Shown here piece by piece: positions 111-36,445 of a stretch of 40,803 nucleotides of DNA. The stretch's first letter is position 1. The number at the start of each line of letters is the position of its first letter. The notes beneath the pieces were generated by a model. That model was not told the DNA's origin. It searched no databases and saw nothing but the letters and a program-made list of their open reading frames with translations. The DNA is taken from assembly GCA_052055015.1 (NCBI GenBank), contig JBQJIT010000050.1; one strand, written 5' to 3'. This DNA is from Malassezia furfur. Its lineage: Eukaryota. A program made the position numbers and the translations under genes.

Positions 111-3054
111 CTATGCAGAAGGGGGCGTCTCGAGGCGCGCCACGAGCGCCTGGAGGTGGCTAGGGGTCAGCGCGCCGCCGCGGCATACGTACCGGATCTT
201 GGCCTCGTCGCGCGCGCGCGCCTCGCGCGCGCCTAGGCGCTCGCGCTTGACGCGCTCGTCGGCCTCCTTGACGCGCTGCTCGAGCTCGCGCAGGCGCACG
301 GACCAACGCGTGGGCGAGTCGACGCCGGTGCTGGACGCGGCGCCGGCAGTGCGCGACGGCGCAGGGCTCGTGCGCACACGGCTCAGCTGCTGCTGTAGCG
401 TGTGATTTGTGCGCTGCAGCGTACCAAGCTCGGCCTCGGTGTCGACGATGCGCTTGCGCCACTGCGCCTGCTTCGCGGCCGCGGCCTTGATCGAGTGCTC
501 GATGCGCTCGAGTTGGCCCATGCGCGCCTCTTGCTGGCGACGCAGCGCCGCGACCTGGTCGGCCTGCGTGCGCTCGAGCGCGCGCGCACGCTGCTCGAAC
601 GTCTGTTGAATGTGCGACAGGCGGCGCACGAGCTGCATGAGCCGCTCGCTAAACTGCGGCAGCTGGTGCTGGACGAGCTTGGCATCGGACGCGACGCGCC
701 CGTCGTCATCGCCGGCATGCTTGCGCTGTGGGTTAGTAGGCCATACATACCACCACGCCTGCGGGCCCCGCGGCCCCGGACAGCGCCTTGGTGAGGCTCT
801 CATAGACGGTCGTCAACAGCTGGTTGCGCTCCGCAATTTGCGCGTGCGACGGTGCATCAGCGCGCCGCATCGCGCTCGGCGAGCGCTCGGTCTCGCTACG
901 CCGCGCGCGCAGGGTCGACAGTGTGTCGCGCGCCTCGTCCAGCGCCTTTTGCGCGACCTCGTAGCGCTCCTGCGCGCCCAGCCGCGCACGCACCTCGGCC
1001 TGCAACGTCGTGGCGAGCTCGCGCGTCTCGGCCTGCAGCCGGTGCACGTGGTCCTCGGTGTCGCCGACGCGCTCTTCGCGCAGTGCGAGCGCCTCCTGGA
1101 CACGCGCGAGCTCGGCGGTGAGGCGCTTGGCCTCGCGCTCGAAGCGCGCGCGCTCGGCCTCGAGCGTCTGCCGCTCGCTCGCCTGGTCCTCGCTGCGCCG
1201 GAGCTGCTTGGTGTCTTGCGACTGGAGCGCGCGCTGTAGCTTTTGCTGCTCACGCTCGAGCTGCTGCTTATCGGTGCGCATTTGCACAAGCTGCTGTTCG
1301 AGCGACTCGATCAGCTCGTTCTTGGCCTCGAGCGCGCGCTGCGTCTGCGCCTCCGACGAGGTGTAGCGCCGCGTCCAGGTCGTGTCCGCCTGCTCGCGCG
1401 CAGCCTCCTCGTCCTTGAGATCCTTGACGAGCTCAACGAGCTTCTCGTTCAGACGTGCATTCACCGCCTCGAGCTCGGCACGCTGCGCGCTGTGCCGGTC
1501 CAGCTGGTCGAGCAGCGTGTCACGCTCCGTGCGCAGCTCGTGGACGTCGGACGACAGCGCCGCAACGCTCTGCTGCGCGTCGTGCAGCTGCACCGCCGAC
1601 TGCGACAGCTTCTCCTTGAGCGCACTCGCCAGGCCGTCGTGGTAGGCATGCGCCTCGCTCAGCTCGCGCTCCAGACGCTGGTTCTCGGCGTCGAGCTGCT
1701 GCGCCTGCGCCAGCGCCGCGGCTTCCGACTCGCCGCGCACTACCAGCTGCTCCTCGAGCTCGGCAAGCGCTGCGTGCGAGTCCTGCTGCACCTGGTCCAT
1801 CCGGTCCAGCTCGCCGTCCTTCTCGGCAACAATCAGGCGCTCAGCTGCGAGCGCGTCCTGCAATGACGCAATTGTCTCGTGCTGCTCGTCCACCTGGCGC
1901 TGCAGCTGGTCAAGCGCCGCAGCGTCGGCCGACTCGGGGTGGTCGCGCAGGTAGGCAATCTCCTGCTCCGCGTCCTGCAGGTCTGCACGCAGGTTCTCGA
2001 TCAGCGCGTCGCGCTCGTCGTCGTCACGCTGTTCGCGCGCATGTGCGTCGCTTCGGGAAGCCAACTCACGCTCCAGCGCCTCGTTCTCAAGCTGCTGCGT
2101 GCGCAATGCCGCACGCAGCTCGTCCAGCTCTGTATCCTCTGTTCGCTCGGCACGTGCAGCGTCGGCGCGCGCCTCAGCCGTGCGCGCACGCTCCTCGGCA
2201 CGCTCCAACCGCTCTTGTAGCGCCTCGTAGTCCTGGATCTTGGACTCCCACGCCTTGACCTGCTTGTTGACCGTCTTGAGTGCCTGGTCCTGGCCCTTGA
2301 CCAGCTCATTGAGCTTCTGCAGACGGCGCACATACCCAAGTTTCTCCTGCCGCAGCGAAATCACCTCGGCGCCTACATCGTCAGGGCTCATGTTGCGCCG
2401 ATGGAAGTCAACCTCGATCTTGAGGTCATCGCGCTCGGCGGTCAGCTGGTCAATCTTCTGCTGCGTAGACTTGATCGAAATGCCGGCCGCAGTGCGCCGC
2501 CGCATTTCCTGCACACCCCAGTGCCCCGAGCTCGACTGGTCACCATTTGGGTCACCGTCCTCGTCCTCGAGCAGCTCCTCGACCGCATCGTCGTTTCGCA
2601 TCAACTGGCTTGCGCGCAGCGACGCCGACAACGACGACTCATCCAAGTCCAGGTCCGCGGTCGTGCTGCGTGGCGTTGCCAGAGCCATCCGCCGCGTCGC
2701 TGTCCGCGGTGTCGCCTGGTTGGATGAAGTTGGCTTGCGCGGCGTCGCTGCCGCATCCGGCGCGGAGGCAATCGGTGAGCTGGTCTCCGACGCGAGCGAG
2801 GGATCTTGTAACGCGGATTCCTCGGACGTATCATCTCTCGCATCCGAGTGCATCGTGCGGCTATCCTCCGTCGACGAGAAAAACGCCGCGGGGCGGCTAG
2901 GCTCCGAGGTCGGCAGGTCGAGGCTCTCCTCGGATTCGAGGCTCAACGACGGATCGTTGTGGAATGTTGCCATGCTTTGTTCCACGGACGCATCGGAAGT
3001 ATCTTGTACTCCGCTTTCATACAGCGCCTTGAGCGCCGCAATTCGGTTCGCCAT
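111..3054 (-). CDS. Coiled-coil gamma-tubulin complex receptor, Mto1/ApsB (centrosomin CM1)-like; exons 3054-751, 725-193, 159-111
   Basis: CM1-like motif SIKSTQQKIDQLTAERDDLKIEVDFHRR, long coiled coil, and C-terminal WSVRLRELEQRVKEADERVKRER resembling the Mto1/ApsB tail. The 25-nt intron 726-750 (GTATGT..TACTAAC..CAG) joins ORF 733..3054 to the frame of ORF 111..803. A probable in-frame 33-nt intron lies at 160-192 (GTACGT..CTGAC..TAG). Confidence 0.75.
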
Positions 3055-3563
3055 CGTCCCCGGCCCGGCGCCCGTGACCAGCGCGCGCGTGGATCAACAC
3101 CAAGGCGTGTCGCGCGGCGTTGCGTCACGTGAGGAAACCGCGGCGGCAAGCCGGGCGGCCCACCAGGGCTGACTGGACCACGAGAGGGTGTGTGCACGGC
3201 CAACGCACGGCGCGGATGCGCAGCGGCAGGACAGCACCATGGGCGGAACGGAAGCGCACAAGAGATTCTACGAGATCCACATCCGGCGTATCGCGCAACG
3301 ATCTGCCCCCCTGACACAGCACAACGGTTCTTCCTGACCACCCGGAGCAGGGCCCAACGCGCCCCATAACCAAGGCAGCCATAGATAGCATACAATGGCA
3401 TATGTGCATCCACGCAAAGCGTTGGCGTAGGCGCACGCACGCACACACAGAGTAAGCGGGCGCACGTAACCACTAAACCCCGTCAGCAGATCGTATCCGA
3501 CTCAGCGGTCCCAAAAGATACATGGAATTGCTTGGATCATAGGCTAATCAAAGCAGGGGGAAT

Positions 3564-3936
3564 TTACTCGTCATCGTCGCCGCCATCAGCCAGCTTGATG
3601 CACTGCAGCGGTGTTAGCATCTGCGCGCTCAAAGCAAGCCACATACCTTGTCACGGATGTCGGCCCACTGCTTCTGTATGTCGCACGCCGAAGCGAGTGT
3701 CAGTATACGTCCTCCTTCGCGCTGAATACGCACCCCCTTGTTGTGCCGGTCCCACCACATTTGCGTCGCGGTGTCGAAGCCGATGCCGAAGAGGAAGGCG
3801 CCCGTGAAGATGGTGCCGACGCTGTTTTTACGCCGCAAAAGCGGCCGTGTTAGTCGAGTCCCATCGCGCCACGCAGTACGTACTAGACCGAGTTGCGGAG
3901 TACAAACGTGTTGTAAAGCGTGTTTGCAAACGACAT
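3564..3936 (-). CDS. QCR9: Cytochrome bc1 complex subunit 9; 4 exons (introns 3822-3883, 3674-3733, 3603-3646)
   Basis: Manual splicing gives MSFANTLYNTFVLRNSVYVGTIFTGAFLFGIGFDTATQMWWDRHNKGKQWADIRDKCIKLADGGDDDE*, with the RNS and NKGKQW hallmarks of Qcr9/UQCR10. All three introns are GT-AG with CTRAC branch points. Confidence 0.93.
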
Positions 3937-4015
3937 GGTGTCCGTGGAGCGAATGAACGAAACCGGATTTGCCCATGACAAATCGCGCGGGTCTCGCCGA
4001 GCCTGGCCGATGCTA

Positions 4016-4023
4016 TCACGTGA
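4016..4023. promoter_or_regulatory. TCACGTGA E-box upstream of QCR9
   Basis: Palindromic octamer about 80 bp upstream of the QCR9 ATG, abutting the UBX gene stop codon. Confidence 0.5.
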
Positions 4024-4788
4024 CTATTTGCCGCCGGTGCCTTTGAACCACTGCGTGAGCCGTGCGCAGGCGCGTGCGTACCTTGGGGAACTTGCGCTTC
4101 TCGCGCGCCTGCTGTGCATCGGACGACGCGCCGTCCGACGCGTTCGGACGCACCGAGGGGACCTGGGTGGCGAAGGAGGGCGGGAGCGGCATGTCGCGGG
4201 CACGCGCAGCCACGTCACTCCGGAGAGGCGCAGGTGCATCCGTCGCTGCGTCAGTGCAGGCAACCTACCGTTGCGCGTGGGATCCGCCCAGCGGATGCCC
4301 AGCACCGCCGCCGGTGCAAACCCGAGCTGGACCAACGTAGTGCGTATTTGGTTGCGCGGAAAGTCGCGTTTGGGCGGTGACTGAAAGAGCATATAGTCGC
4401 CTTGGCTGCCTTCGTGCAGCGTGCTGTCCACCATGGTATAGACGTCATCGATCGTTGCAGAGTGTGGAAACGTGTGCTCGATTTGAGTCCGATCAGAAAA
4501 TCGGACGCGGATGCGCACGGTGTCGTATTGTTTTTTGATGCGCCCACTCGCGGCTTCTTGCCGCGCACGCATGGCACTGGTCATCAATGGCGCGTTGGGT
4601 CCATTGCGCTGCTGAATTACGCTCGCGAACGCTTCGCGCAGTTCCGCCGAGGTCGGTTCAAAGTTGTCGTGTTCGGGCGGGGGTGGCGCTTGGGTCAGTC
4701 AAGCTCACGTACCATAGGCACGGTTGTTCGGTGCACGATACACCGACACTGGCGTGGGCGCAGGGTCCGGGAACTCTTGTGCACTCAT
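4024..4788 (-). CDS. UBX-domain Cdc48/p97 adaptor (TUG/ASPSCR1/Ubx4-like); introns 4689-4712, 4246-4268, 4051-4081
   Basis: Spliced product MSAQEFPD...FEPTSAELR...LMTSAMRARQ...IRVRFSDRTQIEHTF...LFQSPPKR...LVQLGFAPAAVL...KFPKWFKGTGGK*. The UBX signature and terminal PKW motif are typical of the TUG family. Confidence 0.8.
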
Positions 4789-4879
4789 CGTGTGCAGGCA
4801 CGACGCGCCACCGTGGTGGTCCTGTGCGTAGGCGACACGCACGTGTGGAGGTCGCTGGGTCCCTCCACCACGTACCGCC

Positions 4880-7800
4880 ATGCAGGTCTGGCTGGCGGAG
4901 GCCACGGCGCAGCAGCGCACCCTGCTGGTGTCGCGCCACGAGCCGCAGCGCGGCGTGGAGACGTCGGATGTCGTGTTGTCTTTCAGTGCGTCGGCGGGGC
5001 GATGCACGCTGTCGGTGCTGCATGCGTCCGATTTGGTGTGGACGCACATGCAGCGGCTTTCGTCGCCGTCGGTGCCGCTGCTGGGCATCCTTGGCTTGCT
5101 CAAGATGGGGACCGATACCTACCTCGCATGCATCACGCACGCTGAGCGTGTGGGCTCTCTGCATGCGGACCAGTGGATTCGGCGCGTGCGGGGGGTGACC
5201 TTCTTCTGCATCAACCGGGCCGTGCGCGACGAGGAGTTTCAGTACGGCATCGACCCGCAAGAATACGGGCGGAGCACCACGTCGAGTGCTCCCGCCGAGA
5301 ATCCGTGTGCATCCATTCGCAAATACATGAACTCGGGCTCCTTCTTCTTTGCCGAGCGCTGTGCGTTCGACTTGACCCGCCGCTTCGCTCGCATCGAGTT
5401 GCACAGCGACATGGACCAGCAATTTTCGTCGCAGTTTGCGTGGAACACGTACATGATGGAGCCCATCCTGCAGTTCCGCACACGTCTCGACCCATCGCAG
5501 CGTGCTGAGCTCGACAGCGCGGCGCTGTTGGTGCTGGTAATCCAGGGGTACGTTGGCATGGCGTCGTTCCCCCTCGGCCCCGAGCGGCGCGACAAGGGCA
5601 CACTCGCGGTGATCAGCCGGCTGAGTGCGCGGCGGGCTGGCACGCGCTTCAATGCGCGCGGGATCGACGACCAGGGCTATGCGGCCAATTTCGCCGAGAC
5701 CGAGACGGTGCTGGCGTTTGGGGAGGACGTAATGAGTTTTGTGCAGGTGCGTGGCTCCGTGCCCCTGTTTTGGGAGCAACAGGGCCTGCAGGCGCTTAAT
5801 GCGCGTATCCAAATTACGCGCGTGGGCGCCGCGACGCAGCTGGCGTTTGAGCAGCACATGCAGCGCCTGCTGGACGAGTACGAGCGGGTATTTGCGCTCG
5901 ACCTGCTGGGCACGCGCGACGCCGAGACGATGCTGAGCCAGGGATACGTGCAGCACATTGATGCGATGCTGGCGCATCTGCCGCTGCACGGCGATGAGAA
6001 GCCGCTGCGGTACTACAACTTCGACTTTCACACCATCACCAAGGCCACGGGCGGATTGGATGGCACGCGCGCCGAGCTCGACCGGCTCAACAATGTGCAG
6101 ACGCAGCGGCAGTACAATGGGTACACGGTGGCGCAGTACCACCCCAACTACGTTGAGCACGTCATGACGCAGACGGGTGTGTTCCGCGTGAACTGCTTTG
6201 ACTGCCTCGACCGGACCAATGTGGTGCAGGGCTGCCTGTCGCACGCGGCATTGCGCGACTTTTTTCGCACGCTGGCGCGCGAGAAGTACGACGATGCCAA
6301 CCTGGCGCTGCTGCGCGACACGCCGGGGCTGCCCGAGGCGCTTTGGCCGCTGCACGGCCGCCTCTGGGCCGAGAACGGCGATACGCTCTCGCAGATCAGC
6401 ACGGGCACCGGGTCGCTCAACTCGGACTACACGCGCTCCGGCTCCAAAAAGTTTTTTGCTGGACTGCTGAGTGACGCAGCCAAGAGCGCGAGTCGGTACG
6501 TCGCCTCCCTTACCCAGCATGTACATGAACAATTTCCAGGACCAGAGCAAGCAGCAGGCCATCGACACGCTGCTCGGCACGCGCAGTGGGCAGGAGCAGG
6601 TCGTGCTGTACGACCCGGTGTACACGGCCGCCGACGAGGCGCTCGCGCGGCGCAAGGACGAGTATGCGACGCGGAAACGCGTCCGGCTCTTTGTTGGCAC
6701 CTACAACGTGTGTGCACAGCCGCCGCAGCAGCTCGAGGCGTGGTTACGGGAGGCGTCCGGCGCAGACATCGTGGCGCTCTCGTTCCAGGAGCTGGTGCCG
6801 CTCACCGCGCAGCAGATGCTTACCTCGTCAGCTGCCGAGCCGATGCGGCAGTGGGAGCGGATGGTGCTCGCAGCGCTGCACACCGGCACCGAATCGTACG
6901 TGGTACTGCGCAGCGAGCTGCTGTTTGCCACGGGTGTGCTGCTGCTCGTGCGCGAGACGATGCTGCCGCACGTGCGCAACGTCGAGGCCGCGTCCAAAAA
7001 GACGGGGATGCGCGGCATGAGCGGCAACAAGGGTGGCATTGCCGTGCGCATGGACATCTTTGACACGGACCTGTGTGTCGTCGGTGCGCACCTTGCGGCG
7101 GGCAGCACGAGTGTCGACGAGCGCAACAGCGACTATGCGAGCATCGCACGCGGCATCCAGTTCCCACGCGGGCGCACCATCGACGCCCACACCCACGTCG
7201 TTTGGGCGGGCGACCTGAACTACCGCTTCGACCAGCTGAGCAGCGCCGAGGTGCGCGGCCTGTGTGCGGAGCTGCCGCCGTCGGGCGCGTCAGACGCCGC
7301 GGCGCCCGAGGGTGTGCTGCGCAAGCTGCAGGCGCATGACCAGCTCAAGCTCGCGCAGGCGTCGCAGGCGGCGTTTGCGGGCTACCAGGAGGGGCCGATC
7401 ACCTTCCGCCCGACATACAAGTACGACATTCACACCGACACCTACGACTCCTCCGAAAAGGCACGCGCGCCCGCGTGGACGGACCGCGTGCTGTGGCGCA
7501 CCAAGATGCACGAAACAGACGCGGTTCGGCTCACTACCTACGCGTGTGCGGACCTACGGATCAGCGATCACCGCCCGGTGCATGCGCAGCTCGACGTGCT
7601 CGTATACGCCGTGGACACAGCGAAGCGTGCTGCGCTGCAGAAAGAGCTCGTGGGTGCCGCACAGCAGAGCGTGCCGAGCGCGCCGCCGAGCGACAACAGC
7701 ACCTCCCTCCCGCCGCCGTCTGACGACGCCCAGCAGTGGTGGAACCAAGGCGCGCCGCTGCGCCCCAGCACCGACGCGACGCTCGGCAACCCGTTTGTTG

Positions 7801-10088: not shown

Positions 10089-11174
10089 CTACAATGCAAT
10101 GGTGAGTTTTTTGCCGGTCACATCGCCACGGCGCACTCGGTCCACGCCGGCCTCGACGGCACGAAGGCCGCCCGGCACCGCCTCGGCGTCGTTGGGCTTT
10201 ACCAGGCCTCGCGCCAGTAGATTCGTCAGGATGCCGCTGCGCGCAAATGCGGCCATGAAGTGGCGGTCTTCCTGGGCCTCCGCGTGAGTACACGACTTGA
10301 AAAAGAGGTCCATTGCCTCGCCTTCTGTCGTGTACAGAAGGAAAAAGGTCGCGTGCACCCGGAGGTTCACTTCACGCACATCGCCATCGTACAGGAGCGT
10401 CACAAGTCGCGAGGACTGCGTCTTGGAGAGTGCACGCGCGCACAGTGCCGACGAGCCCTTCTCAGAATAGGCATCGACCGCCATAACGAGGTCCGGGTGC
10501 GCCTGGGCAATCGCATCCGCCACATTAGGCTCACGGTAATCGTATACCTCGGACGCTCCTAGGCTCTTGAGGAAATCGGCGTGCCGCAAGGATGCCGTGG
10601 CAATCACATAGCACCCCGACGTACGCGCCAGCTGTACAAGGAACTGGCCCACAGACGACGCCCCGGACCAGACCAGTAGCTTCTTCGCGGGGTCAATGGG
10701 CGGCAAGCGATCGATATCAGCTGGCGGCGGTGTTAGCCCAAGATTTTTGCTTTGGTACAGCGCCATGTATGCGGTGAAACTTGTGATGCCCAATCCCGCT
10801 GCCAGGGAATCACTGATGTTGTCCGGGACGCGGATTACACTGTCAGGCGAGGTCTTTAGATACTCGGCAAATGCGCCGATCCCGTCATGGATCGCGCCAT
10901 GTACCCAGCCAGCCACACGTTCTCCTAGCTTGAGATCACTGTCACATTCTGCCCCTTTTTCGGCAACCGTGCCTACAAAGTCGGAGCCGAGGATCGTTCC
11001 TTGGACACCTAAAACATCCAGGTGTTTCCAGTCAGCAGGACTTAGTCCCATGCTAACCACCTTGACGAGTATCTCCTTAGAACCTGGCTTGGGCACATTG
11101 ATCCGCTCTATCTTTGCGCTGCCTTTTCCTTGGACAACCCACGCATCCATCTGAGATGGGATTTTGGCACTCAT
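10089..11174 (-). CDS. MDR-superfamily enoyl-reductase-like oxidoreductase (ToxD/YNL134C-like), copy 1
   Basis: SPADWKH, GSDFVGTV, GAFAEY, WSGASSVG, LGASEVYDY, GKKL. Start set at ATG 11174 (MSAKIPSQM) by alignment with the paralogues. Intronless. Confidence 0.88.
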   Translation of the reverse strand: MSAKIPSQMDAWVVQGKGSAKIERINVPKPGSKEILVKVVSMGLSPADWKHLDVLGVQGTILGSDFVGTVAEKGAECDSDLKLGERVAGWVHGAIHDGIGAFAEYLKTSPDSVIRVPDNISDSLAAGLGITSFTAYMALYQSKNLGLTPPPADIDRLPPIDPAKKLLVWSGASSVGQFLVQLARTSGCYVIATASLRHADFLKSLGASEVYDYREPNVADAIAQAHPDLVMAVDAYSEKGSSALCARALSKTQSSRLVTLLYDGDVREVNLRVHATFFLLYTTEGEAMDLFFKSCTHAEAQEDRHFMAAFARSGILTNLLARGLVKPNDAEAVPGGLRAVEAGVDRVRRGDVTGKKLTIAL

Positions 11175-11412
11175 GGTGGTACTTGCCAAGCTGGCAAAAA
11201 GCGGTGCTTTCAAAGCGGGATTTCTTCCGCGCACGGACCAGCACGGACCAAGCTGGAAAAACCTCATGATGCATTTCACACACAATGTTCGTTATAATGC
11301 TTGCGGAAACGCATCCCATAACACACTGTCCATACCTTCTAAGAATATACATTCATTCTAGTCTTCCAAATAAAACATTCTATCTAAATCCCACAACTTG
11401 GCGCTATATAGC

Positions 11413-12501
11413 TCACAAAGCGTACGTCAGCTTCTCGCCAGAAACCTTGTTGTACCGCAGACGGTCAAGGCCAGAGGGAATCGCCGGAAGACCACCCGAC
11501 TGCGGCTCAGTGCGATCCGGCTTGATCAAGCCGTTCGACAGCAGGTTCGTAAACACGTCGCTGTTGACAAATGATGCCATGAACTGGCGGTCCTCCTGGG
11601 CCTCCTTCTTGCTGCACGATTTGGTAAAGAGTTCAAACGCTTCACCTTCCGCAGAGTACAGCAAGAAGAAGGTTGCGCGCACTTGGTTGTTCACTGAGCT
11701 GAGATCCGAGCTGATCGGCAAAATTGTCACCAGCTTGGAAGCCTGAGACTTGGGCAGGGTGCGGCCACAAGCTTCGATCGAGCCGTGCTCGGAGTAGGTG
11801 TCAAACGCAAGCGTGAGATCGGGGTGTGCCTCAGCAATTTTCTCCGGAGTCTGTTCGTCGCGGTAATCGTACACCTCGGAAGCACCCAACGACTTCAAAA
11901 ATTCGTTGTTTTTCGGCGAGGCCGTCGCGATCACATAGTAACCCGATGCACGTGCAAACTGGATCACAAACTGTCCGACAGAGGTGGCACCCGACCAGAC
12001 CAGCAGCTTCTTCGAGTTGTTCACGGGAGGCAAGCTGTCCAGTTTCGGCGAGGGAGGCTCCAAACCGAGATGCTTGCTCTGGTACAAGCCCATGTACGCC
12101 GTGAAGCCGGGGATACCCAAGCCAGCTGCGAGTTCGTCACTCACATTTTCCGGCACTTTAATCACAGCTTCCGGGTAGGTCGCGAGATATTCGGCAAAGG
12201 CACCCGTTCCAACGCGAGTACCACCGTGCACCCAGCCAGCGACGCGCTCGCCAACTGCGATGCCGCTCTGGCAATCCTTCCCCTTCTCAACCACAGTACC
12301 CACAAAGTCGGAGCCGAGCGTGGTACCCTTGAAGCCGAAGAAGTCCAGGTGTTTCCAGTCCGTCGGGTTCAGTGCCACATTGTGCACTTTGACCAAAATG
12401 CCGGTCGGGTCGACTTTGGGCGTTTCGGTCTGTTGCAAGTCGGCAAAGCCCTTGTCCTGGACAATCCAGGCCTTCATAGTCGCAGGAATGTTAGAAGTCA
12501 T
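11413..12501 (-). CDS. MDR-superfamily enoyl-reductase-like oxidoreductase, copy 2
   Basis: LNPTDWKH, GSDFVGTV, WSGATSVG, VSGEKL; collinear with copies 1 and 3. Confidence 0.9.
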   Translation of the reverse strand: MTSNIPATMKAWIVQDKGFADLQQTETPKVDPTGILVKVHNVALNPTDWKHLDFFGFKGTTLGSDFVGTVVEKGKDCQSGIAVGERVAGWVHGGTRVGTGAFAEYLATYPEAVIKVPENVSDELAAGLGIPGFTAYMGLYQSKHLGLEPPSPKLDSLPPVNNSKKLLVWSGATSVGQFVIQFARASGYYVIATASPKNNEFLKSLGASEVYDYRDEQTPEKIAEAHPDLTLAFDTYSEHGSIEACGRTLPKSQASKLVTILPISSDLSSVNNQVRATFFLLYSAEGEAFELFTKSCSKKEAQEDRQFMASFVNSDVFTNLLSNGLIKPDRTEPQSGGLPAIPSGLDRLRYNKVSGEKLTYAL

Positions 12502-12618
12502 CGTTGTTTGTAAAGGAGTTGGAATGCGGTTGTCTTCGCGACCGCGAGCCTTTTAAGATGCACGGGCCCCCATTTGATCGCTGGAGTTCCTTGCAATTCT
12601 GCTTAGAAAAAACGCAAT

Positions 12619-12625
12619 TGACTAA
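12619..12625. promoter_or_regulatory. Possible AP-1/Yap1 response element TGACTAA upstream of MDR copy 2
   Basis: Exact TGACTAA about 118 bp upstream of ATG 12501. It is a single short motif and could be chance. Confidence 0.3.
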
Positions 12626-13213
12626 TATCCGAGCAAACCCCGACTGGGCAATGAGCTAATACGTTCAGCCAGGAAGCGCAACTCACCTGGTCGCGAAGGT
12701 GTTCGGATTTATGGGACAACTATAGAGACTTTCCAAAAGTAATCAGCATTAGAATGCACACCAAGTTCTTCGATCATCGAAAGGATTGGTCCTTTGGGAA
12801 TCTACTCTTTCATGGCACGGAGTTTATGATGATTCGATAACCTTCGGCGCCATATGTCGGCGTTAAGCTCTAGAATGCTTGAACACTGCTCATTTAAATC
12901 CATTAGATACATCATCGAAGATGATCCTATAATTTACTTCAATACAGAGACTTCATTGTAATCGAGCGCTGGTATGATCATTAGCACGGTGCTGTGTTTG
13001 CTGGGTAGATGAAATTATGGTTAAATTGTCACTTCTTCCGTCAAAAGGCAGCATATCTAGACTAGCAACCAACTGTTTTGGCATTCTTTTCTCTCTCGGA
13101 ATCGCAGATCGCTCATATATACCGCTTGGGATGAAACTCCTTGTCAATGGTAATTGTCTACTGCTTGTTGGACGAGTCCAATCCTAATAAATACACCTAA
13201 TTAGGGCATGAAT

Positions 13214-24050: not shown

Positions 24051-24084
24051 GCCCTGGCATACGATGTCGTCGTCTGTGCGTAGC

Positions 24085-24111
24085 CACGTGGCAGGAAGGA
24101 AAGGTCACGTG
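24085..24111. promoter_or_regulatory. Paired CACGTG boxes in the divergent promoter of RPP0 and the 624-aa gene
   Basis: CACGTG at 24085-24090 and 24106-24111. Confidence 0.5.
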
Positions 24112-25382: not shown

Positions 25383-25939
25383 TTACAAGACCAAAGCACC
25401 ACCAACCACCGCCACGGCCACGGCAACGAAGAGGGGAGCGGCCTGGCGCATGCTGGCGCCGTTGCTGACGCCGTTGCCGCTGGAGTTCACCACAGAGGTG
25501 GTGATCTCGCGACCACCCGACTTGGTAACAGATTCGAGTACGACCGAAGTTGGGGCGGGTGCGGCGGTCGTCGAGCCTTGGAAGGGGCTCGAGGCGTACG
25601 CTTCGCTGGCGCCGGCGGCGGCGAGCGAGTTGACGTAGGAGCTGCTTGCGGCTGCACCGGTAATATCCGGCACGCTGTGCGACGAAGGGGAAACGACCGG
25701 TGAGTACTGCGTCTCTGTCTTGTAGGTATTGGCGCCCGTAGTGCTAAGGGGTCAGGAGAGCGTCCAACGTACCAGTCGCCGAATTGGACGCAAGCCGACA
25801 CGCCGTTCGAAGATGCCGTAGGTTTCGACACGGGCGCCATGGACGATGGTGCCGACGACGTCGAAGACTGTGCGTGGACAGCGCTTGCGAGTGCGACGAC
25901 CACCGCGGCGACGTACGCGGCCCACGTCGTTTGCACCAT
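25383..25939 (-). CDS. Small secreted Ser/Thr-rich, probably GPI-anchored surface protein; intron 25744-25772
   Basis: Signal peptide MVQTTWAAYVAAVVVALASAVHA-Q, CVQFGDC after splicing, Ser/Thr-rich body, and SNGA followed by a hydrophobic tail PLFVAVAVAVVGGALVL*. Confidence 0.78.
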
Positions 25940-27919: not shown

Positions 27920-28973
27920 TCATAGCGGGCCGCGCACGTCGGCCACCACCGGCAAGTGATCACTCGCGCCGTAGATCGTGTGCCGGATCTCACACGCGGT
28001 GATGCGTGGCAGTGCACGCGCGTTGGCGATGAATGTGTCGATGCGCCAGCCTGCGCCGCGTACCCGGCAGTTGCCGCGCCACCCATAGTACGTGTACTCG
28101 CCAACGGCGTCGGGATGCAGCACGCGCCAGGCGTCCTGCATTTCTGTCGCACCCAGCACGCGGCGGTGAGCGTCGCACTCGGCCTCGGTGTAACCGGCCG
28201 ACTTGTTCCACTTCTTGGACGCGCCCGCGAGGTCGCGGTCGTCCCAGACGACGTTCAGGTCGCCGCACCAGATCAGGTCGCGGTCCGCGTAGGTCTGGAG
28301 GTGCTTCTCCAGCGCATCGTTCCAGCGCATCTTGTTATCGAGCGTCTTGAGCTGGTCGCCGGCATTCACCGCGTACGTGCCCACCACAACCGTGTGAGGG
28401 AACACGACGGTGATCATGCGCGCGCGCGAGCTGGGGTCGTGGAAGCCGGGCAAGCCGTAGTGAACCTCGCTCGGCTTGATCTTTGAGAGGACCGCTACGC
28501 CAGCGTACCCCTTCTTCTCGCCGATGCCCCAGTACTGGTGCGCATAGGTCGCATCAAGGCCCGCGTGCGCCGGCGGCGCGTTCACCTGCGTCAGGATGGC
28601 CACACACCTTGGTCTCGCTCAAGATCAGCACGTCGGGGTCCTCGGCCTTGACGTAGCGCATCAGGCCCTTGGCATCGGATGATTTGAGCGACGTAATGTT
28701 CCAAATCACCATGCGCACATCGCCCTCTTGTGGACGCGCAAACGACAGCGCGCCCTTGGGCAGCTCCTTGTTGCGCGGCACCCAGTCGGGCGCGACGTGG
28801 TCGACGCCCGTCGGCGCCGCAGGCGAGCGCGGCGCATCGTTCGCCGCATCTGATTTGGGTGAGGCGCGAGCACGCTTCGGCGCGCTGCTTGCATTTGTGC
28901 TCGCTGCCGTGCTGGCCGCGCGTTTCGTCATCCCCACCGAAGCACGCGAAACGAGGCGCGCGGTGCGAAGCAT
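27920..28973 (-). CDS. Exonuclease III/APE1-family AP endonuclease; intron 28586-28607
   Basis: WNI, DPDVLILSETK, GYAGVA, WCGDLNV, YTYY, GWRID, SDHLPV. The 22-nt intron links ORF 28554..28973 to ORF 27920..28603. Confidence 0.9.
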
Positions 28974-29023: not shown

Positions 29024-30073
29024 ATGTTCGCGGAGCGCGCGTCGCAGCGCTCGTACGCGATGGACGACGACGCGGACGATCTTGAGGCCTTGCTTGCTGC
29101 CGAGGAGGAGATTGCGGGCGAGTGGGCGCGGCCGCGCGCGTTTGACGATGAGCCCGCGCACGATCCGCAGGACGTGCTATTCCTCGGCCTGGACGACGAC
29201 GAGGAAGAGACCAGCGCAATGGACGTTGATGACGCTGCACCGGCAGCGACAGCGGACGAGCGCAAGGACACGGGCAAGGTATCACAGCCCGAGTCGGTGC
29301 CGCATGGACGACCGGCGCCACGCACGGCGCCCTCGGCCCCCACCTTCCAACTCTACGCACCGGCCCCTCATACCCCTGCGGCGCCCCGCGCGGTGCCTGA
29401 CGCATCCCACATACCCAAGTACATTCCTGCGGAGCCAGCATATGCAACGACGCTCGATGGGCGTCCCATAACGATCCCACGCCGTCGGCGCACGCGTGGA
29501 TGGACGGTACGTTGCGTACTGACCCAGCCGCCCGCACCCATACGCACAGCAACGCACGAGCTGCTTGGCGAGCCGATCGGCCGGTTGATGGAGCGCGTGC
29601 ACAACCCTCCCCCGCCAGCCCCGCGTGTGCGGGCGCGCCGCGCATCCGACGTGATGTGGGCCGAAAAGTACCGTCCGCGCAAGTTCACCGAGTTGCTCGG
29701 CGACGACCGCGTGCATCGTGACGCGCTGCGCTGGGTCAAAGAGTGGGACGCATGTGTGTTTGGTCGTGCAGTTCCTGCGCCACGCAAGCGCGCGCTCAAT
29801 GCGGATGCTGATGAGCCCGGTCCGCCGCCTGACCCCTTCCAGCGCCCCGCCGAGCGTGTCCTGCTGATTTCCGGCCCAACAGGGCTGGGAAAGACGACGT
29901 TGGCGCATGTTGTTGCGGCACAAGCCGGCTACCGTGTCTACGAGCTAAATGCATCCGACGCACGCACCGCCGCCGACGTCGAGCAGCGCGTGCGCGTCGC
30001 GCTCGAGTCCGATAGTCTGCGTGGCGGGGGCCGTCCGACGCTCGTGGTCATCGACGAGATCGACGGTGCGACA

Positions 30074-30108
<35 letters not shown>

Positions 30109-31585
30109 TGCACTGGGCACCGCGGGCTTTGTGCGTGCGCTTGTGCGGCTCGTGGAGCGCGGCAAGGGCGACGGCAAGCGGCGCGCCTCGGACGCGCCTG
30201 GCGTGCGCCGCAAGAAGGGCCCGCCGCCTGTGCTGCGCCCGATTGTATGCGTGTGCAATGATCTGTATGCGCCTGCGCTGCGACCCCTGCGACCCTGGAG
30301 TAAGATTCTGCGCTTCCACCGCCCGCCAACGCCTGCGATTGCGCGGCGCCTGTCGCAGATCTGTGCGGCGGAGCAACTGCGTGCCGACACGCGCAGTTTG
30401 TCGCTGCTGTGTGAGTTAACGCACGGCGATTTGCGTGCATGCCTGCACGCGCTCGAGATGCTGCACACGCGCGACGCGCCCGTCACGGACGACGCCATCA
30501 CACAGTCGACGATCGGCATCAAGGACAGTGTCGTATCGCAGCAGCGACTGTTTGCGCAGCTCTTCTGCCAGGTGGATGCGACGCCGGCTGCTTTCCACGC
30601 GCGGCGCTCACGGCAGAGCAAGGCGATGCCCGCGGACCGCATGCGGGCGCTCGTGCACGAGATGACGGGATACGGCGAATACGACCGGCTGGCGCAGGGG
30701 TGCTTTGAGCACTACTTGCGTCTGCGTCTGCCTGACCAGGGGTGGCAGCGGTATGCGTCCGCGCACGACTGGCTGCACTTTGCGCAGAGCATGACTCACC
30801 GCGCGTATGGCGGCGGCGGCAATGGGCCTGCGTACGAGCTATTTGCCTTTTTGCCGTGGGCGTTTGTGCCGTGGCACCTGCTCTTTGCCAATTTGGCGAA
30901 CCCGCTGCCGGAGCAGCTGCCGCGCACGGACTACGACAACCATGTGCGTCTCACCGAGACGCACGAGCTGGTCGCGACGCTGCGTGCGCACCTTCCGTCG
31001 AGCACGCAGCCGTTCTACTCGCGTGCGGCGATCGCCACCGAGCTTGGTCCTGCGCTTGTCAAGATCCTGAGCCCCGATTTGAAGCGCGTACGTTCTTCCC
31101 CACTGACGCAGCCCGCGCCACAGACCAGCGCCGAGGCGCAGCACGCGATGCACGCGCTTGTCGACACGATGCTCTCGCTGTCGCTTACGTTTGCACCCGA
31201 CCGCACCGAAGAGGGCGCCCTCGTATGGCGCCTGCATCCCCCGCTCGATCGCTTTGGCACGTACGGTAGCGAAACGCGGTGCGACGTCGGCCCTGCGCGG
31301 CACGGCGTGCGGCAGCAGGTGCAGCGCGAGCTCGAGCGCGAGGCGGCGCGCCGGCGCCCCACGGATGCGCCCGAGCGCAGTAAGCAAGCGGCGCGTGCGG
31401 GCGCCGCCGATGCACCCGCGCGCACGTTGGTGACGTACGACTTCTTTGGGCGCCCCGTGGCGCCGGCGCCTGCGACGCAGCCTGCGGCGTCCGACGCGCG
31501 CCCCGAGCTGCGCGTCTTTTTCCGCTACCACGAGGGCTACTCGAATGCGGTGCGCAAGACGATCCGGCTGTCTGCGCTGCTATAG
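29024..31585 (+). CDS. CTF18: Chromosome transmission fidelity protein 18 (alternative RFC large subunit); probable in-frame introns 29507-29527 and 31088-31111
   Basis: WAEKYRPRKFTELLGD, Walker A GPTGLGKT, ELNASD, Walker B IDEIDG, RPIVCVCNDLYAPALRPLR, C-terminal RYHEGYSNAVRK. Alternative start at 29060. Confidence 0.95.
30074..30106 (+). repeat. (GGC)11 microsatellite encoding poly-Gly in CTF18
   Basis: Eleven perfect GGC units just after the Walker B motif DEIDGAT. Confidence 0.95.
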
Positions 31586-31589
31586 GTAT

Positions 31590-34514
31590 CTAGACGACAT
31601 CGATGCCCGCCTGCGCCAGCGCCGTGACGAGGTCCGGCTCGAGGTACGAGCTGACGGCGATCGCGTCCGAGAGCCCCTTGCGGCGGCGCATCTTCAGCAC
31701 AAAGTCGCGCGCCAGGCCGAGCGGCGGCGCGGGCTCGAGCGGGCGCAGCATGATGCTCGTGTCCATCGGGTCGCCCGGCACCACCGCCCAGTGGTCAAAG
31801 GACTGCAGCACAAACGCCTGGCCCTGCGTGAGCACGCGCAGGTCCGTCTCGAAGCCGTTGGCGTCCATGGCGGGCAGGAACGCCTTGACGGTCACGAGCT
31901 GCGTGCCGGCCTTGGGCGTGTCCTGCACGACGTGTCCGCGGCGCCGCGCCAGCAGCGTGTACACGGCACTGACCGCCTCCGCCGGCGCCTGCACCTCGGC
32001 CGAAAAGATCGGCTCCATGAGGCGCGGCGTCGCGAGCAGGAAGGCGGCGTACGCGGCGCGGCGTGCGGTGGGGATCATTTGGCCGCCGCCGCGCTGGATG
32101 GGCTCGGCGGCAATGTCCGCGTGGACGAGGCGGAACTTGACGTTGCGGATCGGCTCGTCGCACAGCGGCCCCTCGCGCGTGGCCCATTGGAAGCCTTGCT
32201 TGATGTGCTCGCGGACGAGCGCGAGGCGCTTCTTGTCGACCTCGTCGGGGAGCGTGTCGTCCACGAGCACGTTGGGTCCATCCTCCGCGGGCCCAAACGC
32301 CCAAATGTTGCGCGCCGCGAGCGCATCCCAGCCGTAGCGCTCGGCAAACACCTTGGCGAGCGCGCGCGGCGGCAGCGAAGGGTCGAGCACGCCGCGCTCG
32401 AGGTCCTCGGCGATGCCCTTCTCGAGCGGCTCGGCAATGAGCGTGAGCCGGTTCTTTTGGTTCGGCGTGGTGGCGTACGCCTGCACGGCGCTCGTCTCGA
32501 CGACCGTCTCGCAGAACTTGACGACAGGGTCGCTGATCTTGATCTCGACCTCGGCGTACAGCACGCGCAGGTCGTGCATCACGCAGTCGAGGTACAGCTC
32601 GCCCGTGCCAAGTAGCGTGTGCTCGCCGCTCTCTTCGACACGTGTCGTGGCGAGCGGGTAGGTCTTGTTGATCTTGCGCAGGCCGTCGAGCATGCGCGGT
32701 AGCTCGGGCGGGTGCAGCGGCTCGACGGCGACCTTGAGCACGCTCTCGGTCATCTGTACCACGGGACGCAGGGTATACGTCTCGCTCGCGGCGAGACTCG
32801 CGGCGCACAGCGTCGCGCTCTTGACGATCGGCGCGTCCACACCGCCGAGCAGCACCAGGTTGCCTGCGGGCACGGCGTCCGTCGGCACGGCGTAGCGCGC
32901 CTCGCCGATCCACACGTCCTCAACGGTGGCCATCGCCATGTCCTCGTCGTCGTCCGGCGTAAAGTTCTCACCCAGCACCTTGACCGAGTCGCCGCGCGCG
33001 ACCGTGCCGCTCAGCACGCGCCCCAGCGCGCGGAACTCGGAGGCATCGGTCGTTGGGAAGAGCTTGGTGATCTGCACAAGCAGCGGCCCGTCGCGCGCGC
33101 ACGCCGCGGCACCGCGCGCGAGGCTGCCGTCCGGCGCAGTGCTCGTGCGGGCGACCTTGTCGGCGGTGGCGGCCGCCGCGCTCGGGAGGTGCTCAGCAAG
33201 CATGTCGACAAGCCCCGTAGGCGGCCCAAAGAACTGTGCCAGCACCGCGCGCAGCAGCGGGCGCACGTCCATCTCGAACGCGCGCGGGCGCAGGTGGATG
33301 TGCAGGCCGTGCAGCGTCTTGCGGAGCGTGTCGGTGTCGGCCGAGAGCACCTGCGTGTAGAGCTTGTAGAGTGGCGCGAGCACAAAGTGCACAAAGCTGC
33401 GCGGCGCGTCGGCGTGCGGCGCCTTGCGCGCGAACGTGCGCGTCTTGGCGTCGTAGAAGATGTTGCCCCAGAGCCGCTGCGCCAGCGCATCGACGTCCAT
33501 GGGCGCGCCGCGGGCGTACATCGCTGCGAAGGAGCGCAGCGTGAAGCAGTAGCCCATCTCCGTGCTGGCAAACGCCACGTTGCCGCGCTCGGGGCCGAAG
33601 CGCAGCGCGGGATCGCCGCCGCTGGCGGCGCCGACCACCGCGTTCACCTCCTCGATCGTGTGCCGGATCTTGAAGTAGGCCTCCTGCGGCGGCAGGCGCA
33701 GCTCGTGAATGAGGCGGTCCAGCTTGTTTACCACGAGCGTCATCGGGATGCGCTCACGCACACAGAAGCGCACGATCGCCTCGGTGTTGCACATGACGCT
33801 CTCGACCACGTCCACGACGACCACTACGCCATCGACGAGGCGCAGCGCGGCGGCCACCTCGTCGACAAAGTTGGGGTGCCCCGGCGTGTCAATCAGGTGC
33901 AGCAGGTGCGACTTGCCGCGCGTCGTCTGCATCACGAGTGACATGGGCGTGCACCGGATCGACATGCGCCGCTGCTGCTCGAGCGTGTGCGTGTCGGTGT
34001 AGCGCAGCGGCGTGTCGACGTCGACGTCGAGCACGTGGGTCTCGTAGACGAGCATGTCCATCAGGCTCGTCTTGCCGTGCCCGAGGTGCCCGACGACGGC
34101 GACGTTGCGCACCATCTCGGGGAAGTTCATCAGACTCGTCAAAAACGAGCGGTCGAAGCGCACGTCGGGCAGGCCCTGCTCCTCGATCGCAAACGCGCGC
34201 ACTTTCTCGGGCTCGATGATCGGCTGCGTGATCGGCTGCGTGTCCTCCTCCTGGACGAGTGTCTCGACGTCCTCGCCGTACACCTCGGCCGCGCTCGGGT
34301 AGTACACCTTGTCTTCGTGCAGCACGACCGCGTTCGACGGCGCGTCGTCGACCTGCATCACCTGCAGGCCGCCATCGTCCGCCGTCGCGGCGGGCGCGGC
34401 GGGCGCGGGCTCGAGCGCCGGCAGCTCCTCGGCCACCTCCTCCTCGTCCACGACATCCTCGTCGGATTCGGAGAGGGGGCCGATGTAGTTGCCGAACTCG
34501 TCGTAGTCGTCCAT
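31590..34514 (-). CDS. SNU114: U5 snRNP 116-kDa EF-2-like GTPase
   Basis: MDDYDEFGNYIGP, VVLHEDKVYYPSA, GHLGHGKT, DTPGH, NKLD, EESGEH, GFQWATREGPLCDEPIRN. Intronless. Confidence 0.97.
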   Translation of the reverse strand: MDDYDEFGNYIGPLSESDEDVVDEEEVAEELPALEPAPAAPAATADDGGLQVMQVDDAPSNAVVLHEDKVYYPSAAEVYGEDVETLVQEEDTQPITQPIIEPEKVRAFAIEEQGLPDVRFDRSFLTSLMNFPEMVRNVAVVGHLGHGKTSLMDMLVYETHVLDVDVDTPLRYTDTHTLEQQRRMSIRCTPMSLVMQTTRGKSHLLHLIDTPGHPNFVDEVAAALRLVDGVVVVVDVVESVMCNTEAIVRFCVRERIPMTLVVNKLDRLIHELRLPPQEAYFKIRHTIEEVNAVVGAASGGDPALRFGPERGNVAFASTEMGYCFTLRSFAAMYARGAPMDVDALAQRLWGNIFYDAKTRTFARKAPHADAPRSFVHFVLAPLYKLYTQVLSADTDTLRKTLHGLHIHLRPRAFEMDVRPLLRAVLAQFFGPPTGLVDMLAEHLPSAAAATADKVARTSTAPDGSLARGAAACARDGPLLVQITKLFPTTDASEFRALGRVLSGTVARGDSVKVLGENFTPDDDEDMAMATVEDVWIGEARYAVPTDAVPAGNLVLLGGVDAPIVKSATLCAASLAASETYTLRPVVQMTESVLKVAVEPLHPPELPRMLDGLRKINKTYPLATTRVEESGEHTLLGTGELYLDCVMHDLRVLYAEVEIKISDPVVKFCETVVETSAVQAYATTPNQKNRLTLIAEPLEKGIAEDLERGVLDPSLPPRALAKVFAERYGWDALAARNIWAFGPAEDGPNVLVDDTLPDEVDKKRLALVREHIKQGFQWATREGPLCDEPIRNVKFRLVHADIAAEPIQRGGGQMIPTARRAAYAAFLLATPRLMEPIFSAEVQAPAEAVSAVYTLLARRRGHVVQDTPKAGTQLVTVKAFLPAMDANGFETDLRVLTQGQAFVLQSFDHWAVVPGDPMDTSIMLRPLEPAPPLGLARDFVLKMRRRKGLSDAIAVSSYLEPDLVTALAQAGIDVV

Positions 34515-34603
34515 GCCAGTCTCCCGCGCGTCGTCGCCGCTCGCGAAGAGAGGCGCGCACGTGACTGCTGCCCGGCGCCCTCCCCCGCCCGCCTCGCACG
34601 GCC

Positions 34604-36445
34604 ATGCGAGGGGAGCAGGCACGCGCCGCGGCGCACGCGACGTGTGTGCGCTGGTGGCGCTTCGGCACGCTCACCGCGAGTATGGCAGGCTCGCAGGTGA
34701 TCTGGAGCCTAGAAATCGCCTACGGCACACCCTACCTGCTCGCCATCGGGCTCTCGAAGCAGGCCACCAGCCTCGTGTGGATCGCCGGGCCGCTCTCGGG
34801 CCTCCTGATGCAGCCGCTCATCGGCTCGCTGTCGGACGCGTCCACGTCCAAGTACCGCCGTCGCAAGTACATGGTCGCATCTGCGCTGTTTGTCGCGCTT
34901 AGCACCTGCCTCATTGCCTTCAGCGAGCCCGTCGCCATCCTGCTCCTGGACCTGCTCGGCGTCGGGCTCGGCGACTGGGACCCGGTGCGCCGCGAACGCA
35001 CCGCGCAGCTCGTGCAGGTGCTCAGCGTGCTCGGGTTCTGGGTGCTCGACTTTGCGATCAACGGCCTCCAGGTGATCAGTCGTGCACTTATCCTCGACTC
35101 TGCCGACAGCGCCGAACAGAACGAGGCCAATGCATGGCAGGCTCGCATGCTCCACGTCGGCAACATTGTCGGCTACTGGTGCGGCTGGGTGAACCTTGGC
35201 GAGTGGCCGACGCTCCACTGGGTCGGCGGCGGCCAGTTCCGCAAGCTCTCCGTGCTTGCCCTAATTGTTATGGGCATCACCGTCGCAGTGACGTGTGTGT
35301 GCACGCCCGAGACCGAGTACCAACACACCACGCCGCCGCCCACGCGCGGGTGGCAGCGCGTGTGTGGTTCTCTGCGGCAGATCTGGCACGTTGCGTGCCA
35401 TTTGCCGCTGTCGATCCGCCGCGTGTGTGTGACACAGCTGCTGGTACGTGCATGACTTACCCAGGCAACGATGAGCTGGTTCCCGTTCTTGTTCTACAGC
35501 ACGACCTACATTGTCGATGTGGCGCGGCGTAGCGGTATCCACCGGCGCGCCGAGGACGAGGAAAAGACGGGCAGCCTCGGGATGCTGCTCTTTGCGTTCG
35601 TCTCCATTGCATCGGGCACGCTGCTCCCTCTCCTCACACACGCAGGAACACACACGCCGCAGGATACCCCCGATGCGCCGCCGCGCCCGGTGCACATGTG
35701 GCAATGCGTGCGTCTGCGCACCATGTGGACGGCTGGTGCGTTGGCTCAGGCGGTGTTGCTATTCGGCACGTTTGTGGTCACGACGCAGACGCAGGCCATT
35801 GCGCTCGTGACGCTCATGGGCATCCCGTGGAGCATCTGGACATGGGTGCCGTTCGCACTGCTTGGCGAGTTTGTGCGCGAGGCCGAGTCGATCCCTGCAC
35901 AGGACACCGCCGAGGAGCAGTGGTCCGCACAGCAGATCATGGACCGCCCCGAGCGCGGATCACGCACGAGCGCGCACGACACAGACAGCGGGAACCGCCA
36001 CTCGTACTCCCACGAGCCGTCGCAGCACTCGTCCGACTCGACGCGCATCGTTTCGGGGTCGTTTGTCTCGTCGATCGTCTCGCGCGGGCGACAGCTGCCG
36101 GGCGACGTCGCGCCGTCGGACGACAGCATCCGCGGGGGCACCATCCTCGGCATCCACAACCTCGCGGTGGTGGTACCTCAGCTGCTCGTTGCGCTAATTT
36201 CCTCGCTCATCTTCCGTGTGACGAGCACGGCACCACGCAAGCATCACCCGGCCACGGACGGCGACGTGGCGTGGGTGCTTCGCTTTGGCGCGCTGATGGC
36301 CATCGGTGCCGCATTGCTCACGCGGTGCATCCCCTTGACACAATCGGAGCGGCGCGCCTCGCGCTCAGGCTATGTGCCGCTGCTCGACGACGACGATGAT
36401 GTCGACGACGCCGAAGCCTCTGTAGGCGCCCCGCCGCATCCGTAG
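34604..36445 (+). CDS. SUT1/SLC45-like sucrose/alpha-glucoside:H+ symporter (GPH/MFS); intron 35444-35464
   Basis: WSLEIAYGTPYL, WIAGPLSGLLMQPLIGSLSD, RRRKY, WFPFLFYSTTY, ILGIHNLAVVVPQ. The 21-nt intron contains the in-frame TGA that splits the two ORFs. Confidence 0.9.

Follow-up and report, generated by a model that had tools for sequence, protein, structure and literature searches.

Can segments of 21 to 25 nucleotides (nt) be ordinary spliceosomal introns, and would a fungus that carries them represent a new splicing system? This question is raised by a stretch of Malassezia furfur DNA (GenBank assembly GCA_052055015.1, contig JBQJIT010000050.1), referred to here as the window, i.e., the whole 40.8 kb that we analyzed, in which the genes are interrupted by 23 predicted introns, most of them in that size range. 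Our analysis indicates that all 23 very probably belong to the ordinary U2 type (GT-AG) of spliceosomal intron and come from a GC-rich Malassezia, in which they have shrunk to little beyond their three recognition signals. Short introns are a genus-wide trait already recorded in published Malassezia annotations, and the finding is thus correct, not new.

The preliminary description of this DNA had reported 23 GT-AG introns, 17 of them 21 to 25 nt long, with a mode of 23 nt, and all coordinates and lengths were reproduced. A 5′ GT and a 3′ AG were found in 23/23 segments, on one strand each, which was always that of the host gene as set from Pfam matches and gene models. Ten introns are on the minus strand (160-192 to 4689-4712, 25744-25772, and 28586-28607) and 13 on the plus strand. 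They are listed below; the strict motif is defined further on, and retention refers to the consequence of leaving the segment in the mRNA.

160-192, minus strand: gene A (coiled-coil), 33 nt near the 3′ end; GTACGT..CTGAC..TAG; in frame, stop-free
726-750, minus strand: gene A, 25 nt, phase 0, strict motif; joins two open reading frames (ORFs) of at least 200 codons
3603-3646, minus strand: QCR9 (complex III subunit 9) intron 3, 44 nt; GTATGT..CTAAC..CAG
3674-3733, minus strand: QCR9 intron 2, 60 nt; GTGCGT..CTGAC..CAG, tail of 26 nt; in frame, stop-free
3822-3883, minus strand: QCR9 intron 1, 62 nt; GTACGT..CTAAC..CAG, tail of 28 nt; retention gives an immediate stop
4051-4081, minus strand: UBX-domain gene, last intron, 31 nt; GTACGC..CTCAC..CAG
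4246-4268, minus strand: UBX gene intron 2, 23 nt; strict motif
4689-4712, minus strand: UBX gene intron 1, 24 nt; GTACGT..CTGAC..AAG
6496-6517, plus strand: synaptojanin-like gene, 22 nt between the SacI and 5-phosphatase domains; strict motif
16543-16563, plus strand: HSBP1 intron 1, 21 nt; in frame, stop-free
16612-16634, plus strand: HSBP1 intron 2, 23 nt
18035-18057, plus strand: SAS4-like gene (G10) intron 1, 23 nt; strict motif
18294-18316, plus strand: G10 intron 2, 23 nt; retention gives a stop after 5 codons
19227-19249, plus strand: SWD2 intron 1, 23 nt
19348-19368, plus strand: SWD2 intron 2, 21 nt; in frame, stop-free
19436-19457, plus strand: SWD2 intron 3, 22 nt
20114-20136, plus strand: SWD2 intron 4, 23 nt
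21138-21160, plus strand: enoyl-CoA hydratase-like gene (ECH), last intron, 23 nt; strict motif
25744-25772, minus strand: small Ser/Thr-rich secreted-type gene, 29 nt; GTACGT..CTGAC..TAG
28586-28607, minus strand: APE1/ExoIII-type AP endonuclease gene, 22 nt; GTGTGT donor
29507-29527, plus strand: CTF18 intron 1, 21 nt; in frame, stop-free
31088-31111, plus strand: CTF18 intron 2, 24 nt; in frame, stop-free
35444-35464, plus strand: MFS (sucrose-transporter-like) gene, 21 nt; strict motif

Four introns are 21 nt long, three 22, seven 23, and two 24 nt, and the others measure 25, 29, 31, 33, 44, 60, and 62 nt, giving a median of 23 nt and a mean of 28.0 nt. This narrow modal length of less than 30 nt places the set in the tiny-intron class. 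The minimum of 21 nt had been taken as an apparent floor, which is more than 23 introns can set; two related contigs described below, L001 and L003, add seven introns of 22 to 24 nt, none shorter. Since 15/23 lengths are not multiples of three, retention of those introns would shift the reading frame. A deficit of stop-free introns whose length is a multiple of three is a Paramecium-type signature; in the window, eight introns have such a length, of which two contain an in-frame stop and six are stop-free (160-192, 3674-3733, 16543-16563, 19348-19368, 29507-29527, and 31088-31111), in a small sample (n = 23).

All of these segments are built on the same signals. The 5′ splice site (5′ss) follows a GTAYGT-like consensus, with G1, T2, and G5 present in 23/23 introns, A3 in 21/23, and T6 in 20/23. 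A branch motif YTNAY, with the consensus (A)CTNAC and a C at its position -3 in 22/23, was matched in all 23, at a distance of 5 to 28 nt from the 3′ end. Twenty introns have CAG as the acceptor, 2 have TAG, and 1 has AAG. In 16/23 introns, the distance between the branch A, as placed by the motif, and the 3′ end is exactly 5 nt, amounting to a fixed short tail. The loop from G1 to this A measures 16 to 19 nt in 17/23, in agreement with the lariat loop of about 16 nt proposed earlier. A typical micro-intron thus consists of GTAYGT, a spacer of 5 to 9 nt, and a composite CTNAC-N-CAG 3′ module, with no room for a polypyrimidine tract. The QCR9 introns (44 to 62 nt) indicate that longer spacers and tails are tolerated too. 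With a GC content of 56%, against 63% for the window, the introns do not show ciliate-like AU-richness.

We searched both strands of the window with a strict motif, GTANGY-N4-13-YTNAY-N1-4-YAG, using 200 block-wise dinucleotide shuffles as a control. Seventeen matches were obtained, compared with a mean of 0.80 in the shuffles (standard deviation, 0.88; maximum, 5). Every one of them corresponds to a listed intron on the coding strand, one as a nested alternative donor of 160-192. The pattern missed six introns, because of a GTG donor (3674-3733 and 28586-28607), a spacer or a branch-to-3′-splice-site (3′ss) distance outside its limits (3603-3646, 3674-3733, 3822-3883, and 4051-4081), or an AAG acceptor (4689-4712). 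No additional intron was found in the window, although weak-signal introns or introns in untranslated regions could escape: a relaxed GT..AG scan with an ORF-joining test yielded hundreds of spurious candidates in this GC-rich DNA and was therefore dropped as a finder of missed introns.

The sharing of one structured motif by all 23 segments, always on the coding strand, argues against errors of assembly or sequencing, or mutations in decaying pseudogenes, as the origin of the interruptions. Errors could in principle yield short frame-breaking inserts in a single window. However, inserts of this kind are found at the same sites in independent contigs from other Malassezia, and independent assemblies contain ORFs 98 to 99% identical to those of the window with the same read-through. 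Moreover, the hosts are essential housekeeping genes, e.g., QCR9, SWD2, and CTF18. We consider this explanation to have almost no chance of being right.

Removal of the introns restores conserved proteins, as had been claimed for SWD2, the synaptojanin-like protein, the AP endonuclease, and the MFS transporter; this was confirmed by Pfam matches, reading frames, and alignments with orthologues or PDB entries. Orthologues or solved homologues support 21/23 introns, counting the synaptojanin-like gene by its domain frames and ECH, where the support is weak; for 25744-25772 and 35444-35464 the support comes from the frame only. The comparative evidence is strong for 17/23. Once its four introns are removed, the SWD2 model can be aligned with full-length orthologues (from Malassezia, Violaceomyces, Sporisorium, Acaromyces, and others) with no gap at any of the 4 junctions; 11 such orthologues cover the junction of intron 1. 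ORF-type SWD2 calls of close relatives show read-through or frameshift at the intron sites; at intron 4 such calls read through, and the spliced C terminus matches the orthologues.

Both CTF18 introns were supported by the NCBI M. furfur protein. The 7 residues encoded by read-through of intron 1 correspond to an exact gap in that protein and in 9 further orthologues, and the 8 residues of intron 2 to a gap in that protein and in 6 further Malassezia orthologues. At the latter site, two non-Malassezia rows of the alignment keep one residue, one Malassezia row has no sequence, and the ORF of a close relative, P0105, is out of frame. Apart from the two intron sites, the read-through and M. furfur proteins differ by a Gly repeat, small N-terminal indels, and a different start. 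The Gly repeat is a poly-glycine run after Walker B, at about 30090-30130 (plus strand), whose length is not the same in the window, the M. furfur protein, and an ORF with 98% identity, i.e., a simple-repeat polymorphism.

Gene A has a C-terminal part with 94% identity to M. brasiliensis and 86% to M. furfur, and both of its introns are consistent with the orthologues. Retention of 726-750 leads to a stop after 5 codons, and the segment is missing from the M. furfur protein. The 160-192 segment is absent from the proteins of M. furfur, M. obtusa, M. vespertilionis, M. pachydermatis, M. cuniculi, and CBS 17886.

For the UBX gene, 3/3 junctions are consistent with full-length representatives. 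The C terminus obtained by splicing 4051-4081 matches the conserved C-terminal motif of four of them (P0243, P0245, P0248, and P0250). The 4246-4268 junction is colinear with the representatives, whereas ORF-type calls drift into read-through; retention of 4689-4712 gives a stop after 2 codons, and its junction is colinear with P0239 and P0243. P0243 fuses the UBX C terminus to the C-terminal part of QCR9 and is evidently a chimeric gene model; in the window, UBX and QCR9 are adjacent genes on the same strand, about 90 nt apart (3564-4790, minus strand). With all three introns removed, QCR9 forms a complete, small ORF that runs from Met to stop; its middle exon, with a match to Pfam PF05365, aligns, at the exon ends, to residues 18 to 46 of 66 of yeast QCR9, a solved homologue.

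The 22-nt intron of the AP endonuclease gene sets the frame of an upstream exon that aligns to APE1 chain residues 19 to 56, up to the exon end; in the downstream exon, APE1 residue 72 falls at exon residue 14, i.e., the match continues about 2 residues later. The short upstream exon was found weakly by phmmer against PDB (E, 0.0016 to 0.17), and a Pfam search gave no match for it. An alternative donor, 28586-28605 (20 nt), was rejected on the basis of its different frame, homology, and donor quality. In the synaptojanin-like gene, splicing of 6496-6517 leads from the Syja_N frame into that of Exo_endo_phos2, generating an ORF of 1034 amino acids, and no other strict-motif site connects the SacI and phosphatase frames. 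The spliced ECH protein ends 8 codons past the intron, like its orthologues, while the unspliced version adds 84 Cys/Arg-rich codons. Splicing of 35444-35464 fuses two ORFs, each at least 200 codons long, into a frame of 606 amino acids, and retention gives a stop after 3 codons; the MFS Pfam matches are located on the upstream exon. In the gene interrupted by 25744-25772, the first exon begins like a signal peptide, and splicing connects it to a Ser-rich ORF whose end is hydrophobic. An alternative donor, 25744-25768 (25 nt), was rejected for reasons of frame, homology, and donor quality.

A metagenome scan provided syntenic Malassezia-like contigs, L001 to L004, with the gene order HSBP1-CHORD-G10-SWD2-ECH. 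L001 (GC, 69%) has introns of 22 to 24 nt at 6/8 compared sites, and L002 (GC, 52%) has longer ones, of 28 to about 85 nt, at 4 sites. In L003 and L004 (GC, 59%) all 8 introns of HSBP1, G10, and SWD2 are absent, base for base. For HSBP1, a comparison with PDB returned only a chance coiled-coil match, and we used a DNA alignment in its place. It shows that intron 1 is 22 nt in L001, 35 nt in L002, and exactly absent in L003, and that intron 2 is 23 nt, 28 nt, and exactly absent, respectively. The site of G10 intron 1 has a 24-nt intron in L001 and none in L003; at that of G10 intron 2 there is also a 24-nt intron in L001, and it is exactly absent in L002 and L003. SWD2 intron 1 is 22 nt in L001 and 35 nt in L002, and SWD2 intron 2 is 23 nt and about 85 nt; both are absent in L003 and L004. 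SWD2 introns 3 and 4 are exactly absent from L001 to L004, which makes them specific to the window among these contigs.

At four outgroup SWD2 loci (L006, L026, L027, and L035), high-scoring segment pairs break at about residues 68, 100, and 123, which correspond to SWD2 introns 1 to 3. These coincidences suggest that the three positions are old, and that the introns were miniaturized here and lost elsewhere. No counterpart of intron 4 was found among the outgroup loci, and it may represent a gain or a loss. In L003, the CHORD gene has a 24-nt intron of the same build (1732-1755, minus strand), and the CHORD gene of the window (16734-17984, minus strand) is one uninterrupted ORF, showing that intron presence or absence varies both ways between lineages.

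The outgroup breaks also bear on the removal of the segments by means other than the spliceosome, namely, a tRNA-type or IRE1-type endonuclease and ligase, DNA excision akin to that of ciliate internal eliminated sequences, or translational bypass. Although the size range overlaps with that of such elements, the ends and the internal motif are U2-type intron signals, and at three SWD2 sites the outgroup genes are interrupted at matching residues, by what we take to be introns. Scans of the window with Rfam found no structured RNA family, and a tRNA scan found no tRNA. In addition, the M. sympodialis junctions came, according to the accessible text of that report, from a spliced-read aligner filtered for canonical dinucleotides (PMC5389616). 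A nonspliceosomal route is thus extremely improbable.

Several points weigh against reading all 23 segments as spliceosomal introns. The branch points were placed by motif, and lariat excision is deduced from the sequence. The weakest of the set is 25744-25772, with motif and frame as its basis; the homologue support for 6496-6517 is weak, consisting of domain frames only, and that for 21138-21160 moderate, in the form of orthologue C-terminal length only. Furthermore, the six in-frame stop-free segments could be unspliced or partly spliced, and constitutive or regulated intron retention would then produce short peptide insertions. Retention does leave the ORF open in these six cases, the equivalent of 160-192 is treated as coding in the NCBI entries for M. 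brasiliensis, M. yamatoensis, and M. psittaci, and ORF-based calls include the CTF18 segments. Nevertheless, the full set of 5′ss, branch, and YAG signals is present in 6/6 of these introns, and orthologues lack the segments at exactly these residues. The read-throughs of gene A in relatives start with donor-encoded residues and end with branch-encoded ones, both kept, with a middle that is variable in length. The out-of-frame CTF18 segment in P0105 also argues against a coding role, and the annotated read-throughs are the output of automated pipelines. We therefore regard retention as improbable, and the interpretation of all 23 as U2-type introns as clearly preferable.

If they are indeed spliced in this way, the 5′ site would be recognized by U1 and U6 and the branch site by U2, with strong consensus pairing within about 16 to 19 nt. 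The first AG 3′ of the branch would serve as the acceptor, and the lariat would be very tight. Old introns would have been miniaturized in this lineage, while sister Malassezia lineages would have lost them outright, as the matching SWD2 positions suggest. The window also contains a core spliceosome gene amid its micro-intron genes, that of Snu114/EFTUD2 (the U5 small nuclear ribonucleoprotein GTPase; 31593-34670, minus strand). It is an intact, intron-free ORF of 1026 codons with canonical domain content (Pfam EFTUD2, GTP_EFTU, EFG_IV, and EFG_C).

The consensus signals of Saccharomyces cerevisiae are GUAUGU and UACUAAC, and the window is similar in its near-invariant 5′ss and branch consensus, again in an intron-poor fungus. 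However, S. cerevisiae introns average 397 bp according to a fungal intron survey (PMC8476143), and their branch-to-3′ss spacing is longer than in the window. In its accessible text the same survey treats M. sympodialis only as intron-poor.

Closer parallels come from the genus itself. The window has 23 introns in 12 of roughly two dozen genes in 40.8 kb, and its mean length of 28.0 nt and about one intron per gene match the published Malassezia architecture. For M. sympodialis ATCC 42132, Zhu et al. (2017) reported 5350 introns, averaging 30 bp, in 4493 genes (PMC5389616, Table 2), and 5271 of them (99%) are supported by RNA-seq (PMC5389616). M. sympodialis thus resembles the window in its compact genes, about one GT-AG intron per gene, and mean intron length (30 bp versus 28.0). 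In M. restricta, the median intron length is 30 bp and the average is 37 bp (PMC9241646, Table 1; the paper also annotates M. arunalokei), and a review mentions the "very short introns" of Malassezia genes (PMC7426719). The idea of a new system therefore does not hold: with these annotations and a typical mean in the window, the trait was already known. The accessible text of the M. sympodialis and M. restricta papers summarizes intron size only by mean or median, together with a cumulative plot (Fig. S8), and does not describe a 21- to 25-nt mode, the branch motif, or the 5-nt tail. Likewise, we found no description of Malassezia intron length mode, branch spacing, or spliceosome in the open literature, subscription papers such as that on the M. 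globosa genome lying outside the search.

Among other eukaryotes, introns shorter than 30 nt are known from Paramecium and other ciliates, microsporidia, dicyemids, and myxobolid myxozoans (PMC13644364, PMC5014332). Malassezia is not named among the organisms with such introns in the accessible text of a 2026 paper, which lists ciliates, microsporidia, and dicyemids (PMC13644364). As in the window, splice signals fill most of the intron in those lineages, at median lengths reported as 22 to 27 nt. They are parasites or ciliates with reduced or unusual genomes, whereas Malassezia is a free-growing, transformable basidiomycete yeast. The ciliate Stentor coeruleus splices introns of 15 to 16 nt, with the branch A at position 10 or 11 (PMC9505925). 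Because of this precedent, the earlier statement that the Malassezia lariats are near the steric limit of the spliceosome was overstated. The two systems share a narrow length class, GT-AG ends, and a 5-nt spacing between the branch A (position 10 of 15 in Stentor) and the intron end, and both raise the question of how so sharply looped a lariat fits the active site. Stentor retains all small nuclear RNAs according to the available text of that study (PMC9505925). It differs in that its introns are shorter (15 to 16 nt, with a loop of 10 to 11 nt), AU-rich (76%), and weak in branch consensus, while those of the window are mostly 21 to 25 nt long, have 56% GC, and carry strong, yeast-like 5′ss and branch consensus sequences.

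We place the window in a GC-rich member of the M. furfur/M. brasiliensis clade. Its closest named protein matches include SWD2 of M. yamatoensis (85%) and CTF18 of M. furfur (92%). Its GC content ranges from 52 to 70%, and according to Pfam it contains closely packed eukaryotic housekeeping genes: a SacI plus 5-phosphatase protein, NDH2, three zinc-ADH paralogues, a CHORD protein, the WD40 protein SWD2, an enoyl-CoA hydratase-like protein, RPP0, a PLP decarboxylase, an ExoIII/APE1-type endonuclease, an AAA+ clamp-loader subunit, Snu114/EFTUD2, an MFS transporter, a Rab GTPase, and a RecQ helicase. The three zinc-type ADH paralogues (ADH_N and ADH_zinc_N domains) are in tandem at 10092-14473 (minus strand), without predicted introns, and this cluster lies in the lowest-GC stretch of the window (52 to 58%, versus 62 to 70% elsewhere). 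Packing is extreme at 22150-22180 (minus strand), where at most about 15 nt separate the stop of ORF 22179-24104 from the start Met of the gene that follows it (ORF to 21190). We considered whether a missed intron might link the overlapping minus-strand ORFs 22179-24104 and 21190-22536 and rejected this, no candidate having a proper donor or branch; they are two separate genes, the downstream ORF having its own Met just past the upstream stop. The ECH gene of the window (20365-21187, plus strand) is single copy, with a different C terminus and a terminal micro-intron. L001 to L004 contain two tandem enoyl-CoA hydratase-like paralogues at 4800-7100, one copy of which in each of L001 to L003 ends in a sequence resembling a type 1 peroxisomal targeting signal (SKL or AKI).

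The prediction that gene finders would mis-annotate such genes was borne out: several public Malassezia proteins read through the introns or are truncated at them. The SWD2 record of M. yamatoensis begins only at an internal Met, past three of the micro-introns. Among the gene A records, those of M. brasiliensis, M. yamatoensis, and M. psittaci translate the in-frame intron, and those of M. brasiliensis and M. obtusa translate the upstream one. The mis-annotated public records are P0003, P0225, P0227, P0228, and P0229. NCBI M. furfur proteins already omit four of the window introns, both those of CTF18 and both those of gene A. In practice, in-frame micro-introns are translated and N termini truncated in public Malassezia proteomes. 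As the simple motif is almost free of false positives in the window, it could be used to repair such annotations.

A further possibility, which we put forward tentatively and consider unlikely, is that GC-rich Malassezia (the window and L001) hold a discrete class of micro-introns, defined by the 16- to 19-nt loop, an invariant 5-nt tail, and the absence of a polypyrimidine tract, that needs lineage-specific early assembly or branching factors. The textbook early spliceosome, with U1, U2/SF3b, SF1, and U2AF side by side, may then be unable to handle this build. If this were true, Malassezia would offer a genetically tractable fungal system, so far overlooked, in which to study the splicing of tiny introns. 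Malassezia can be transformed (PMC5654937), making the limits on spacer length directly testable. The rigid build of these introns is a clean statement of the minimal fungal signals: a 5′ss hexamer, a short spacer, and a branch site fused to the 3′ss at 5 nt.

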